From the NCBI GenBank assembly GCA_050124975.1, contig JASFEF010000001.1, positions 26,122 to 90,121 of the forward strand: DNA of 64,000 nucleotides, written 5' to 3'. This DNA is from Candidatus Thorarchaeota archaeon. GTDB taxonomy: Archaea; Asgardarchaeota; Thorarchaeia; Thorarchaeales; Thorarchaeaceae. Position numbers and translations under genes: made by a program. The notes beneath the pieces were generated by a model that was not told the DNA's origin, did no database searches, and was given only the letters and a program-made list of their open reading frames with translations. Below, piece by piece: positions 7,768 to 33,646 of this stretch. How positions within the stretch are numbered: position 1 is the first letter of the stretch; every line of letters begins with the position of its first letter.

Positions 7768-7905
7768 TGGTGGGGCAGATGGGATTCGAACCCACGATCG
7801 ACGAGTGTCTTCGTTGACGACGGTCTTTGTTGACCCCGTCCATTTCAGGCGCGAATTGCACCTAGATCTGGAGCCCGTCGCCATACCGGACTAGGCCACT
7901 GCCCC
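7768..7905 (-). tRNA. tRNA-Trp(CCA) with a ~60-nt canonical (37/38) intron and encoded CCA
   Basis: Acceptor GGGGCAG/CTGCCCC. Anticodon stem ACGGG/CTCGT with loop CUCCAGA. T-arm GTGGG-TTCGAAT-CCCAT. The intron contains a GACGG/CCGTC hairpin. Confidence 0.85.
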
Positions 7906-7990
7906 GGAGTTGAGAGCCTGAATTCTGGCTCAGGTTATGAACTTTTCGTCAAGATACAGGACTCGAACTCTCAAAGTCTAAGGGCAAAGA

Positions 7991-8341
7991 TTGATGAGGG
8001 CGCTATACTGGTTTCCAATTCACTTTGGAGGACTTTCTTTGACGAAGAGATATCGTATAGTTGCTCGTATCATAGAAACCAGAGACAAACCATCAGGTAC
8101 ACCCTGTGAAGTTCACAAGGTCGGTGAAGAGTTCGATCTTACAAAAGATGATGACAGGGCAAAAATCTGCAAATGGGCTCTCAATTCTCTTTTCCCATTC
8201 ATAGCAGTTCTAGAGTTTGGTGGAGCCTTTCCTTGGGAACCAAATCCAAAAAAAGCCTTGGTGGCTTGTCCTGACCCCCATAATGTAGTGGTGTTTGAAT
8301 TAGAACGAATGGAAGAAATAGCGAAATCGCCATCCACATGA
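7991..8341 (+). CDS. TIGR04076-family small Cys-containing protein (paralog 1)
   Basis: 116 aa with the pattern C..H.VG..F...C.WA...FGGAFPW...ACPDP.NVVVFE. The start is uncertain (TTG 7991, ATG 7994 or TTG 8039). Confidence 0.55.
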   Translation: MMRALYWFPIHFGGLSLTKRYRIVARIIETRDKPSGTPCEVHKVGEEFDLTKDDDRAKICKWALNSLFPFIAVLEFGGAFPWEPNPKKALVACPDPHNVVVFELERMEEIAKSPST

Positions 8342-12841: not shown

Positions 12842-13638
12842 GAAAAAGGCACCGTGGATGAGATTCTATATCTCGCAACCTCTGGATAATCTAGAAATTC
12901 CCAACTACCCTTGGCATCAGCAATACGTGCCCCTAACTCAAGGTGTAGCATAGCAATACCACAGTCTAGCTTTCTGGAAACACCGAAGCCTTCTCTCTTG
13001 CTGTTAGCTGACACAGTAATCGAATCACTGTTAATCTGGAATCTCCAAGGTTGTCTATTTCCAGCTGATGGGGCAATCCTAGCTGCTTCTAATGCAGTCT
13101 TGGTCCAGTGGTTGTTACCCACTTCTTCACTAATAATGAGCTTGTTTAGCATCTTTCGTCGATATTTTTTGGACGAAACACCCACTCTATCAGCTTCATC
13201 CTTTGAGTATCCAATGGGTGTGATACCTAGTACTCGTTCCCCATCTTCCAGATCAATTTGTTTCAAGACAGATTCACGTCGATAGAACCCTCCGACCCAA
13301 CAAGTATTCAGACCAAGAGCAGTCGCCTCTAGAATGATTCCTTCTCCAAGATATCCCATGATAGCGTGAACATTTGGTGCATTCATATCACCAATGAATG
13401 CGATATAGTATGGTGTTTCTTTTACCTTGTAGAGGAACTCGCCAACTGCACCCTTGAAAACGTCCTTTCCAGAATCTCTCACAAAGACTGCTCTAGAACC
13501 TGGAAACGGCCTGAACTCGTTGCAGACCTTCTCGATTCTTGCAGTCACCTCACCTTTTGGCACTTCACCAGAATACACTCTATGAGAGTGTCTGAGGAAA
13601 ATTGCATCATACCATGAATCGATAGGAATCTCCAACAA
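12838..13638 (-). CDS. Nitroreductase-family protein
   Basis: 266 aa with the SAGNRQPWRF motif. Confidence 0.7.
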   Translation of the reverse strand: MLEIPIDSWYDAIFLRHSHRVYSGEVPKGEVTARIEKVCNEFRPFPGSRAVFVRDSGKDVFKGAVGEFLYKVKETPYYIAFIGDMNAPNVHAIMGYLGEGIILEATALGLNTCWVGGFYRRESVLKQIDLEDGERVLGITPIGYSKDEADRVGVSSKKYRRKMLNKLIISEEVGNNHWTKTALEAARIAPSAGNRQPWRFQINSDSITVSANSKREGFGVSRKLDCGIAMLHLELGARIADAKGSWEFLDYPEVARYRISSTVPFS

Positions 13639-13780
13639 TATCCACCAACTGGTTTGATTGTTACAGTCGTAATGAGGTTAGTACCTGCTATTGCGGCAAT
13701 AAGTGGCGCCGAGTATGAGATTTGAAAGAAGCTTCTGGGAATACTTAATTTCTACCAGCCTTTCATCCAAGCGACTAGAA

Positions 13781-14674
13781 ATGACTGATGAAGAGTATCG
13801 CCGTGTAAGCATGAAAGATGTTGTCTTCAAAACAGATAGTAGCAATCCTCCGGTCCTGAAAGTTAATTCAGGAGAAACGGTGGTTTTCGAATGTAGAGAC
13901 GCATTTAATCAAACAATTCAGAAACCCACGGATTTACCAGTCAACTTTGATATGGAGAGAATAAATCCTGCTACAGGTCCAGTGTTTGTTGAAGGTGCAG
14001 AGCCTGGGGACACGCTAGAAATTCACATTCTAGATATCGATGTTGCAAAACAAGGTTCTTGTTGTATTCTTCCCGGCTTTGGATATCTTGCCTTAGAATT
14101 TCCTGAACCTTGGACAAAAATCATTCCAATAGAAGATGGAATGGCCATCTTTAGTGAGAAGGTGAAGATTCCGATAGATCCTTTTCCAGGCACAATGATT
14201 GTTGCGCCTGCTGAAGGCGCCCATGGCACTCTTATTCCAAAAGAATATGGTGGTAACATGGACTCACGTGCTTGTACAGTTGGCACAACTGTATATCTCC
14301 CCGTCTTTGTTGAAGGGGCTTTATTCGGTGTTGGTGATGTACATGCAGTTCAAGGCGATGGTGAGGTCTGTGGTACGGCAGTAGAAATCGATGCAGATGT
14401 CACAATAAGACTAGTAGTCAACAAGACAAAGACAATTCAACGACCTCAATATGAAACGGAGGAATACTTCATGACTACTGCTTGGGGGGAAACAACTGAT
14501 GATGCAATCAAAATCGCTCTTAGAGACATGATTGATTGGTTGGTTGATGAGAAAGGATTGAGCCGTCAAGAAGCATATGCTCTTTGTAGCTGTGCAGTTG
14601 ATATGAGAATCAGTCAGCTTGTTGATATCACTCCTGGAGTTAGAGCAGTACTCCCAAAATCAATCTTTACTTGA
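13781..14674 (+). CDS. Acetamidase/formamidase-family amidohydrolase
   Basis: FmdA/AmdA-like pattern (PPVLKVNSGETVVFECRDAF, GDVHAVQGDGEVCG). The ORF opens at 13703 (GTG); ATG 13781 or 13811 are more likely starts. Confidence 0.75.
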   Translation: MTDEEYRRVSMKDVVFKTDSSNPPVLKVNSGETVVFECRDAFNQTIQKPTDLPVNFDMERINPATGPVFVEGAEPGDTLEIHILDIDVAKQGSCCILPGFGYLALEFPEPWTKIIPIEDGMAIFSEKVKIPIDPFPGTMIVAPAEGAHGTLIPKEYGGNMDSRACTVGTTVYLPVFVEGALFGVGDVHAVQGDGEVCGTAVEIDADVTIRLVVNKTKTIQRPQYETEEYFMTTAWGETTDDAIKIALRDMIDWLVDEKGLSRQEAYALCSCAVDMRISQLVDITPGVRAVLPKSIFT

Positions 14675-14691
14675 TTCATAAAAGAAAAGAA

Positions 14692-14807
14692 TGGCGCCGA
14701 GGATGAGATTTGTTCCGGTTCACAGGTTGTGAATTCGCTTGAACTCATGCTTCCGAAGAAACTGGTTTTCAAGACCAGCGCCGTAATCCGGGCTTGGCTA
14801 CCTCGGC
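14692..14807 (-). tRNA. tRNA-Ser(UGA), class II, with a non-canonical intron in the T-loop and encoded CCA
   Basis: Acceptor GCCGAGG/CCTCGGC. Anticodon arm CTGGT-CTTGAAA-ACCAG. Long variable arm. T-stem ATGAG/CTCAT encloses 34 nt (TTCAA..gcgaattcacaacctgtgaaccggaac..AAAT) instead of a 7-nt loop. Confidence 0.8.
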
Positions 14808-31747: not shown

Positions 31748-32581
31748 TCAGTCTTTCTTCGCACCGCTTGCTGAAATCTTTCCGACTTCAATTGGTGTTT
31801 CAGAGAACATCATAGGTTGATTTGGAGAGTATGAAGGCTCATGATTGGTCAGCCTCATGACCATCTCATCTCCAGTATGAAAGATATTCCTGAATTGAAT
31901 CTCCAATATTGGACTATAGAGTAGTAGGGGAAGAAAGATTGCAATCATCACGTAACGAAGTGGCCATAGATTGTAGTCGGCCGGATTCAGAAATATCTGA
32001 TTGAGCTTGAACGCGACTTCAATGAATCCCCACCAGAAACCAAAGAAGAGACTGGCCTGTCTGATATGCTTCAACCTGTTAAACATCCCAAATGCTCGAG
32101 TCATCCAATCATCGTACTCTAGTTGTTCAAAGGGATACTCTAGAACTCCTCGTTTCTGTACTGTCAGCACTGCGAGTTTTCCGATGAATTCCCTGTTCTC
32201 ATTTTCAATGATGACAAGCGTCCGAAACCGTTTCCTGAAGAAGCCGCCAATTGTCATGATTGAGAAAGCAAACATCACGATTACCCACACAATGGTGAGG
32301 GCCATCATAACTGCTAGAATGATTATGAGGCAGATAATTACACCTTCCTCTCCGCCGCCGCCACCACCATTGCAATAACAATCACCACCACCGCAACCTC
32401 CGTCGCCAAACACCTCGGACGTCACTGAAATGCGACCAGTTTCTCTGGAATAAACAGCATTACCACCTGGATTAACACCAGTTATACTCTCAATCTCCTT
32501 CTTTAGAGTTGAACCAGATATTCCATATGCTCGTATTGCGAGGGGTTTCTTAGGCTCAGATACCTCCGAATAGTAATCCAC
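31748..32581 (-). CDS. Membrane protein with a Cys/Gly-rich segment, unknown function
   Basis: 277 aa, GTG start. The segment GGCGGGDCYCNGGGGGGEEG immediately precedes the first TM helix. Confidence 0.45.
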   Translation of the reverse strand: MDYYSEVSEPKKPLAIRAYGISGSTLKKEIESITGVNPGGNAVYSRETGRISVTSEVFGDGGCGGGDCYCNGGGGGGEEGVIICLIIILAVMMALTIVWVIVMFAFSIMTIGGFFRKRFRTLVIIENENREFIGKLAVLTVQKRGVLEYPFEQLEYDDWMTRAFGMFNRLKHIRQASLFFGFWWGFIEVAFKLNQIFLNPADYNLWPLRYVMIAIFLPLLLYSPILEIQFRNIFHTGDEMVMRLTNHEPSYSPNQPMMFSETPIEVGKISASGAKKD

Positions 32582-32721: not shown

Positions 32722-32828
32722 GCCTCAGTAGCTCAGACTGGTTAGATCGCGTCCTTGGTAAGGACGAGGCCGCGGGTTCGAAAAAACTGATGATTAGCAT
32801 CGTTCCGAAAATCCCGCCTGGGGCTCCA
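32722..32828 (+). tRNA. tRNA-Thr(GGU) with a T-loop intron and encoded CCA
   Basis: Acceptor GCCTCAG/CTGGGGC. Anticodon arm CGTCC-TTGGTAA-GGACG. T-stem GCGGG/CCCGC encloses TTCGAA-aaaactgatgattagcatcgttccga-AAT. Confidence 0.8.
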
Positions 32829-32831
32829 CTT
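32809..32831 (+). repeat. Direct repeat copy 1 (3' end of tRNA-Thr)
   Basis: aaatcccgcctggggctccactt is identical to 33219..33241. Confidence 0.9.
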
Positions 32832-32839
32832 TCTCTCTA

Positions 32840-33148
32840 TTATTCACTCATCTTTTCTATCTTGAAGATGACAGGTCTTATCCCATCTCCACAAGGTTGG
32901 TATGTTATACCTGGTTCAGGGTAGTTGTAATCTCCCCCACAGTAGTAAACCATTAGAGTAGTATAGAGGTCTTGCCAAGCTTGCCCACAGAAGTCCTTAG
33001 GTCGGTTGAGATGATTATCCATGATGAATTCTTTGCCCACCTCATAACTACATTCTTGTATCGGCTCGCCATCTCTTAGAATCTCGTGGCCAAATATCTC
33101 CTCTGGGCTAAACTTCTTCATGACAGTAATCCTTAGTTTCATCTTCAT
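32840..33148 (-). CDS. TIGR04076-family small Cys-containing protein (paralog 2)
   Basis: 102 aa with the same family pattern as 7991..8341 (C.YEVGKEF...C..AW...CGG...PCGDG.RPVIFKIEK). Confidence 0.6.
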   Translation of the reverse strand: MKMKLRITVMKKFSPEEIFGHEILRDGEPIQECSYEVGKEFIMDNHLNRPKDFCGQAWQDLYTTLMVYYCGGDYNYPEPGITYQPCGDGIRPVIFKIEKMSE

Positions 33149-33218
33149 ATCTGGTCCCTCAATTATCTTGAGTCAACAGATACTTGGAGTGCTAAACTAT
33201 ATGACTTGCTTACGGCGC

Positions 33219-33241
33219 AAATCCCGCCTGGGGCTCCACTT
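33219..33241 (+). repeat. Direct repeat copy 2 (orphan tRNA-Thr 3' fragment)
   Basis: 23/23 nt identical to 32809..32831. It starts exactly at the intron/3'-exon boundary in the T-loop and includes CCA plus 2 nt. Confidence 0.9.
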
Positions 33242-33244
33242 CTT

Positions 33245-33646
33245 CTAATGGTCATTATTGAACTCTGACACCAGACAGGAGAGATCATCACACTTACTTC
33301 GGAGAACAGCATCTCCACGTAATCTTTTGAGGGATGAAAACACAAAATGACTACCAATTAAGAGAAGGAACACTATACCTACACCCAAAGCTACTATGTA
33401 CCCCAGAACTTGGCTGACCGTGTAGCTGTTCGACGTAGCAATCAGGATTGTCATCAGAGACAATGCTATTGTCAGTATACCTATTCCAGTACGAAGTTCA
33501 GCAAGATGAGTCCTCTTTTCAGCATCAATTGTGCGGATGAATGCCAGCGAAGTTCTAATGTTGCTCTGTTCCATTCTATCATCAAACTCTTGTGATTCTG
33601 TTGTCAATGTGGTCCCCTCATCAATCTTCGAGTAGAGGGTCTCCAA
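33245..33646 (-). CDS. DUF202 (YidH)-like small membrane protein
   Basis: 133 aa. RTHLAELRTGIG resembles the ERT.LAW.RT motif. Two to three TM helices. Confidence 0.5.
   Translation of the reverse strand: METLYSKIDEGTTLTTESQEFDDRMEQSNIRTSLAFIRTIDAEKRTHLAELRTGIGILTIALSLMTILIATSNSYTVSQVLGYIVALGVGIVFLLLIGSHFVFSSLKRLRGDAVLRSKCDDLSCLVSEFNNDH

Follow-up and report, generated by a model that had tools for sequence, protein, structure and literature searches.

Integrative elements that target tRNA genes, such as those with SSV1 and pNOB8-type tyrosine integrases, rebuild the tRNA gene at one end, share with it a block of identity running from the T-loop to the 3' end, leave empty sites among relatives and may integrate in tandem at one locus (PMC8371274). 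The locus described here is like them in each of these respects. It lies in a stretch of 64,000 nucleotides (the window) from a Candidatus Thorarchaeota archaeon (assembly GCA_050124975.1, contig JASFEF010000001.1), in which the 3' segment of a tRNA-Thr(GGU) gene recurs downstream of that gene and the two copies bracket a single small gene. We consider it very probable that the two 23-nucleotide copies are attL/attR-type junctions of a 387-bp one-gene unit inserted site-specifically into the tRNA-Thr gene. By itself the repeat is an ordinary integration scar of a known kind, and its value lies in its context. Unlike the described elements, the insert consists of one gene in 387 bp, no integrase was detected in insert or genome, and the same architecture stands behind at least 8 tRNA genes; also unusual are the rows that such units form and their coupling with intron polymorphism, here in an Asgard lineage.

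Several other systems invite comparison. At the tRNA-Thr(GGU) locus of Caldiarchaeum subterraneum, the same tRNA species is affected, tRNA fragments likewise lie beside an insert and intron content differs between alleles; however, its 1.8-kb insert encodes a recombinase and the 5' end of the tRNA is duplicated, whereas here the duplication is of the 3' end, with no recombinase seen and with arrays genus-wide (PMC3293823). Cis-mobilizable elements (CIMEs), which are att-flanked, integrase-less derivatives of integrative elements, also have att-type repeats on both sides and no recombination genes, and a unit without such genes would, like them, depend on an integrase supplied in trans (PMC5704250). 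In contrast to CIMEs, these units have no known cognate autonomous element and are far smaller than the CIMEs described. In Dehalococcoides, tandem islands arise by repeated site-specific insertion at one small-RNA gene, ssrA, which encodes transfer-messenger RNA (PMC3146451). Repeated insertion at a single small-RNA gene is what the tRNA-Thr locus has in common with them. The ssrA islands are reportedly bounded by short copies of the 3' end of the gene, a further likeness, and are said to differ in being several kb long and encoding their own recombinase. Integron cassette arrays, including those of archaeal integrons (Ghaly et al. 2022, PMC9668308), are similar as rows of compact units, mostly with one open reading frame (ORF), which vary in content and order and each carry a terminal recombination site; in both kinds of array the newest unit tends to be nearest the platform. 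Here, by contrast, the IntI gene, attI and attC-type imperfect palindromes are all absent, and the recombination site is a fragment of the particular tRNA, without a significant fold. No paper on tRNA-anchored cassette rows or on T-arm intron polymorphism in Asgard archaea was found in the literature.

The repeated 23-mer, AAATCCCGCCTGGGGCTCCACTT, has two exact copies in the window, spaced 410 bp apart with 387 bp in between, and no others with up to three mismatches. The whole 3.08-Mb, 289-contig genome holds just those two, and 100 dinucleotide-preserving shuffles gave an expectation of no such pair. A sequence-only reading of the window had reported that the 3' end of tRNA-Thr is duplicated 410 bp downstream, which this pair, unique in the genome, bears out; its description of the repeat as reaching from the T-loop to the CCA also stands, while the overhang past the CCA is three nucleotides (CTT) and not two. 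The features of the tRNA gene and of the repeat are as follows.

32722-32782, plus strand: tRNA-Thr(GGU) exon 1, positions 1-59, from ARAGORN on the spliced sequence and the congener alignment.
32783-32811, plus strand: 29-nucleotide bulge-helix-bulge (BHB) intron in the T-loop, at 59/60 with an ambiguous junction (57/58 to 59/60), from folds.
32809-32831, plus strand: repeat copy 1, attL-type core belonging to the working tRNA, from the exact-repeat search.
32812-32828, plus strand: tRNA-Thr(GGU) exon 2, positions 60-76 with the CCA encoded, from ARAGORN and the congener alignment.
33219-33241, plus strand: repeat copy 2, attR-type orphan tRNA 3' fragment, from the exact-repeat search; no significant structure of its own (z = -0.45).

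The unspliced gene was called by neither ARAGORN nor Rfam, and Rfam at a permissive threshold returned only noise. Deleting 32783-32811 yields a 78-nucleotide tRNA-Thr(GGU) with an encoded CCA, as is expected of an archaeal BHB intron whose excision restores the cloverleaf. The intron folds as a helix-bulge-helix-bulge-helix, composed of the outer T-stem, a 3-nucleotide bulge (AAU), a 4-bp helix (UUCG/CGAA), a second 3-nucleotide bulge and an inner helix, and the inner helix of the homologous introns in two relatives (G020 and G009) shows compensatory changes. The tRNA can be aligned with those of 18 congeners, and its anticodon stem is CGTCC/GGACG in this genome as against CCTCC/GGAGG, CATCC/GGATG or CTTCC/GGAAG in others. 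Because of this alignment and these compensatory changes, tRNA-Thr(GGU) is taken as a working gene, and it appears functional once the T-loop intron is removed. A C11:U24 mismatch in its D-stem (GCTC...GATC; window 32731-32746) is kept in all 19 aligned congeners.

The locus was compared across 28 genomes of the genus, namely the source genome of the window (G000, 88% complete) and 27 congeners, and 23 loci could be read. The relatives of the neighbouring genes are all from Thorarchaeota (Asgard) metagenome-assembled genomes (MAGs), for example SMTZ1-45, AB_25, MP5_2600 and E44_bin77. The inserted unit and its surroundings comprise these features.

31748-32581, minus strand: conserved gene for a 277-amino-acid membrane protein (left flank), whose orthologues adjoin tRNA-Thr(GGU) in the nearer congeners.
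32832-33218, no strand assigned: 387-bp inserted unit (cassette A, or unit A), missing at this site in G009, G002 and G042 and present in G005, G011, G043, G007, G018 and G010.
32840-33148, minus strand: cargo gene of the TIGR04076 family, 102 amino acids, matching NCBIfam TIGR04076 at 54.7 bits (cut-off 33 bits).
33149-33218, minus strand: probable promoter region, within the unit and upstream of the TIGR04076 gene, from motif conservation.
33245-33646, minus strand: conserved gene for a DUF202-like membrane protein (right flank), with a weak DUF202 match.

The cargo gene is the sole convincing ORF between the copies, in agreement with the earlier description of a lone TIGR04076 paralog on the opposite strand, and its orthologues in unit A are intact at 57-80% amino acid identity.

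The comparison of empty and filled sites that had been proposed as a check finds both. The closest relative, G009, whose left-flank protein is 87% identical in amino acids, has an empty site: its tRNA, with the same 59/60 intron, abuts the same right flank, with 91% identity to what follows the orphan in G000. The sites of G002 and G042 are likewise empty. Inserted DNA separates the tRNA from the right flank at 20 of the 23 readable loci, mostly as one to four or more short one-gene units, and in 21 of 23 species the DUF202-like gene comes after the last orphan or, at empty sites, after the tRNA itself. Besides unit A, on the opposite strand in G000 and the six congeners given above, a unit B on the same strand encodes a fast-evolving four-helix membrane protein of about 125 amino acids in G017, G020, G006, G015, G022, G021, G016 (twice), G008, G024, G005, G011 and G043, and further unnamed units also occur at the locus. 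The order varies, with A-B in G011 and G043, B-A in G005 and B-B in G016, and metagenome contigs hold additional arrays. In G009, two contigs (L005 and L025) end inside the tRNA-Thr gene and overlap by about 85 nucleotides, and it is their joined reading that gives the empty site; in G004 (L032), the contig end is the 3' end of tRNA-Thr. Population heterogeneity at the insertion site would cause breaks of this kind, and they may be a hint of it.

Direct repeats flanking an insert might also be produced locally and without a mobile element, through replication slippage or unequal crossing-over, or as the target-site duplication of a transposon or casposon. The tandem B-B of G016 could indeed stem from unequal crossing-over between orphans. 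As an account of the locus, however, such duplication is highly improbable, given that the insert is foreign to the empty site and that the fragment may differ from the resident tRNA, as it does in G017. The repeats at these tRNA genes, moreover, vary in length from 20 to 43 nucleotides and always end at the tRNA 3' end, in contrast to fixed target duplications, and the insert ends lack terminal inverted repeats. On account of these differing lengths and the lack of inverted repeats, a casposon or transposon was rejected.

Site-specific integration accounts for these features as follows. The incoming DNA would have carried its own copy of the tRNA segment, in the form of an attP mimicking the tRNA 3' part. 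Conservative recombination between this attP and the tRNA gene would create a repeat from the T-loop to the tRNA 3' end and leave the gene whole; with the copy brought in by attP, the tRNA would stay intact at the proximal junction as exon 1, intron and exon 2, and the 29-nucleotide BHB intron would be spliced out by the tRNA splicing endonuclease. The distal junction would keep a non-coding orphan fragment adjoining the original downstream gene. Recombination would presumably be catalysed in trans by an enzyme of the tyrosine-integrase kind that targets the T-loop, and the likely source of this enzyme is an element absent from G000 or not binned with it. A T-loop 'sublocation' class of tRNA-targeting tyrosine integrases was reportedly set out by Williams in 2002. 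The core of the recombination site at the Thr locus is written as AAATC(C/T)CGCCTGGGGCTCCA; the junction expected of an empty site is ...GAAAATCCCGCCTGGGGCTCCACTT joined directly to CTTCTAATGGTCATT, and that expected of a circle is ...CTTACGGCGC-core-TCTCTCTATTATTC. The sequence-only reading had suggested an attL/attR footprint, of either a decayed remnant or a gene cassette, and the empty sites, variable contents, tandem arrays and decay series lend it support. A direct repeat of a tRNA 3' segment flanks foreign DNA, the tRNA is regenerated at one junction, and attB is empty in relatives.

Most units at the Thr locus terminate in a copy of the tRNA 3' fragment, in states from perfect to unrecognisable, and decay is generally greater farther from the tRNA. 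The distal orphan of unit A has no mismatch in G000, 2 mismatches in G018 and about 9 in G011; G005 and G007 have lost it. A C, matching C56, precedes AAATC in about 20 of 24 orphans of the locus. Two observations indicate that the fragment belongs to the unit and travels with it: the orphan of G017 has the T-stem state CTCGC where that genome's own tRNA has CCCGC, and an identical 22-nucleotide fragment ends six B units whose proteins share just 41-63% identity. Intact fragments mark units that moved recently or are maintained.

Maintenance could alternatively mean that the orphan is kept for a role in place, for example in ending transcripts (as a terminator or 3'-end signal) of the convergent DUF202-like gene or of cassette genes on the same strand, or within the TIGR04076 promoter. 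The orphan of G000 is perfect though its cassette looks old, the six B-type orphans are identical across deeply diverged species, and in all species the stop codon of the DUF202-like gene lies a few nucleotides past the orphan CCA, as it lies beside the tRNA at empty sites. Such a role is nevertheless improbable, since orphans have been lost in G020, G006, G007, G015 and G005 with the neighbouring genes still intact, the motif CTATATGACTTG(C/T)TTAC upstream of the TIGR04076 gene is conserved in G011 and G005 where the adjacent orphan is not, and the orphan forms no stable structure.

A second function that had been proposed for the orphan is as part of a split or trans-spliced tRNA, whose 3' piece it would supply for joining at the RNA level to a 5' piece from elsewhere. 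The split tRNA genes of Nanoarchaeum equitans and Caldivirga maquilingensis also have a free-standing 3' fragment that starts near an intron position, and here the fragment begins at the T-loop, near the intron of the resident gene. Furthermore, the four bases before the AAU of the orphan could pair at 3 of 4 positions with UUCG, and the T-stem state of the orphan is that of the resident tRNA in G000 and G018. Unlike in those organisms, an intact gene for the same tRNA adjoins the orphan, and G000 has complete genes for Thr(GGU), Thr(UGU) and Thr(CGU). A genome-wide search, which included T-stem 5' strands, found these three complete Thr genes and no other Thr-type acceptor/D-arm piece lacking its own 3' end; the check for a tRNA-Thr 5' piece complementary to the leader, also proposed earlier, came up empty in the same way, as the complement of cttgcttacggcgc occurs nowhere else in the genome. 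Shuffled sequence folds as well as the orphan region does, B-type orphans cannot form the central BHB helix, and the orthologous orphans are degenerate in G011, G005 and G007. With a contiguous gene present, no 5' half carrying a complementary trailer and a fragment that is not conserved, the split-gene explanation is largely refuted and almost certainly wrong.

Several observations weigh against integration of the cassette as outlined above. The divergence of the TIGR04076 protein is approximately in step with that of the neighbouring chromosomal gene (80% against 76-83%, and 57-61% against 57-58%), which would fit old vertical inheritance of unit A better than recent transfer. Neutral decay would then leave the perfect orphan of G000 unexplained, and re-insertion, transfer from an unsampled relative or conversion must be invoked. 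The integrase that the footprint of an integrative element would lead one to expect, inside or next to the element, is missing here: no recombinase was detected in or near the insert, and the PF00589, PF16795 and PF00239 profiles (tyrosine, SSV-type and serine recombinases, respectively) match nothing in G000. Among the 28 congeneric genomes, only 8 have tyrosine recombinases, on small contigs, and the 17 integrase-bearing congener contigs scanned (70 kb), out of 19, contain no tRNA and no T-arm motif. Finally, a search of viral contigs with the core pattern and the TIGR04076 protein gave no match to a free (attP or circular) form.

The earlier remark that no integrase is present is thus borne out and extended to the whole of G000. 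Among the inserts examined, no recombinase-like ORF was found and the proteins scanned gave no such Pfam match, and with the integrase contigs of congeners lacking both tRNA and T-arm motif, no cognate autonomous element using the same att site was encountered. PF00589 had no match in 20 of the 28 genomes, G000 included, so that no XerA-type chromosome resolvase was detected there either. Absence of a recombinase is weak evidence because MAG binning probably loses mobile elements.

If the footprint is that of an integration event, the unit may be what remains of a larger element. An integrated virus or plasmid bearing its integrase could have entered at the tRNA and been reduced by deletions that spared one useful gene and both junctions. 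Loss of the integrase after integration is documented for archaeal elements (review PMC8371274), the decay series among orphans would be in keeping with erosion, and larger inserts do occur at this locus. In G012 (E44_bin77; L015 and L033), the 5' part of tRNA-Thr(GGU) is truncated after position ~31 and followed by a large insert that encodes a 754-amino-acid protein, a HerA-like ATPase and an Mrr-like nuclease; the assembly yielded no complete Thr(GGU) gene. In G005 (L023, L075 and L078; overlapping contigs C42 and C47), the original tRNA-Thr(GGU) is without its 5' part, and a different, intronless and inverted tRNA-Thr(GGU) with the acceptor GCCCCTG lies in a stretch of inserted DNA, about 3.5 kb long, that separates the left flank from the old array. 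On the other hand, random deletion should give a wider size spectrum than is seen in G000, where the near-perfect inserts (9 of 9) measure 0.38-1.56 kb and hold one or two intact ORFs with no pseudogene or integrase fragment among them, and the same short units reappear in differing order across species. A stump of a large element is accordingly a possibility that we regard as doubtful. Both explanations fall within that of an integration footprint, and the one favoured, with moderate confidence, is that the unit was, or is, a small mobilisable cassette moved in trans. This preference follows from the evidence that the fragment belongs to the unit, namely the T-stem state in G017 and the six identical fragments of the B units.

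Cassettes of this kind are not confined to tRNA-Thr. Within 6 kb downstream of the tRNA genes of G000 there are 15 copies of the last 20 nucleotides of these tRNAs with 0 to 4 mismatches (5, 4, 3, 2 and 1 copies with 0, 1, 2, 3 and 4 mismatches, respectively), while upstream there is none with up to 4 mismatches save for one adjacent pair of real tRNA-Arg genes. The tRNA genes affected are those for Tyr, Glu, Met, Leu(GAG), Phe, Ser, Asp, Pro and Thr, and the one for Leu(GAG) has four successive orphans. All blocks of identity in G000 begin in the T-arm and end at the CCA plus 0-9 nucleotides. On contigs C20, C3, C21, C36, C9 and C2, the genes for tRNA-Tyr, Glu, Met, Leu(GAG), Phe, Asp and Pro have 3'-end copies 0.4-2.6 kb downstream that bracket one-gene inserts. 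Cargo includes a hemerythrin, a weak HNH match, an acyl-CoA thioesterase, an acetamidase/formamidase and small membrane proteins. At tRNA-Glu, G000 and G002 have a filled site and G011 an empty one. A second case stands within the window itself (region 12847-14807): a tRNA-Ser gene at 14695-14807 on the minus strand, also with a T-loop intron, has copies of its 3' end 988 bp downstream (1 mismatch; near 13704-13723) and 1845 bp downstream (4 mismatches; near 12847-12866), and the first of its inserts carries the acetamidase/formamidase gene.

It is conceivable, if speculative, that Thorarchaeota run an integron-like system of gene capture. The platforms would be tRNA genes (Thr, Leu, Glu, Ser, Phe, Tyr, Asp, Met and others), and the cassettes would be single genes, each with a T-loop-to-CCA copy of 20-30 nucleotides as its site. 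They would be inserted, stacked and removed by a recombinase that in most genomes falls outside the tyrosine and serine profiles, and the same traffic would rewrite tRNA introns.

The introns of the T-arm are polymorphic at this locus. The tRNA-Thr(GGU) gene has no T-arm intron in G017, G006, G024, G016, G008 and G015, a 32-nucleotide intron at 53/54 in G002, G011, G021, G014 and G007, and a T-loop intron of 29-30 nucleotides at 56-60 in G000, G020, G009, G004, G022, G001, G018 and G010. An additional intron occurs at ~40/41, where long displaced fragments begin, and some orphans keep the last 9-14 nucleotides of the T-loop intron (..ATTCGGA[AG]C|AAATC). Intronless genes can stand beside displaced fragments that bear introns. 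In G024, an intronless tRNA-Thr gene is followed 28 nucleotides on by the displaced 3' two-thirds of a two-intron allele; at the tRNA-Tyr gene of G000, the orphan is a long fragment with a 29-nucleotide anticodon-loop intron and the working gene has none. In G005, the replacement tRNA is followed in turn by the ~3.5-kb insert, an orphan and a long displaced fragment in which a 53/54 intron persists.

Near-identical Ba-Bb arrays lie behind a two-intron tRNA-Thr on one metagenome contig (L092) and behind an intronless tRNA-Thr in G016 (L038). The arrays of L092 and G016 show that intron content changes between very close relatives.

In the model of Sugahara et al. (2012), att copies carry tRNA introns in or out, and the idea of protective introns is cited in the same paper (PMC3293823). 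The intron polymorphism and the displaced fragments fit both this model and the protective-intron idea. For the insertion in G000, a link of the intron to the integration site, which the sequence-only reading had drawn, is suggestive only: T-arm introns are strikingly polymorphic at this hot-spot tRNA, but the same intron stands at the empty site of G009 and the start of the orphan is independent of introns. That reading had also placed the start of the repeat exactly at the end of the intron. The coincidence is approximate, as the BHB rule puts the intron end at 32811, 3 nucleotides inside the repeat, and a run of A's leaves the junction ambiguous at 1-3 nucleotides inside. It is also largely trivial, because orphans of all species begin at ~56/57, with or without introns, and a block of identity cannot extend across an intron that the orphan lacks. 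The presence of the intron at the empty site of G009 means that it did not arrive with this insertion, and in G020 the same intron is found beside a different unit. An origin of the intron as the leftover of a cassette end was rejected for this event, as it has no similarity to cassette tails and is common to G009, with its empty site, and G020, with its other cassette.

Within one Asgard genus, a single tRNA locus thus displays all stages, from the empty site through one to four stacked inserts, with junctions from perfect to decayed, displaced fragments and three T-arm intron states. It offers a natural data set on how small accessory genes enter Asgard genomes, on the enzyme responsible, and on whether traffic at integration sites is a route by which non-canonical tRNA introns of archaea are gained, lost or selected. 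If an integron-like capture system does operate, the model in which introns travel with att sites would become directly testable across the whole genus.

The only other TIGR04076-like ORF of the genome is a distant paralogue in the same window, at 7982-8338 (phmmer E = 0.005). It too adjoins a tRNA gene, that for tRNA-Trp at 7771-7905 (region 7771-8338).

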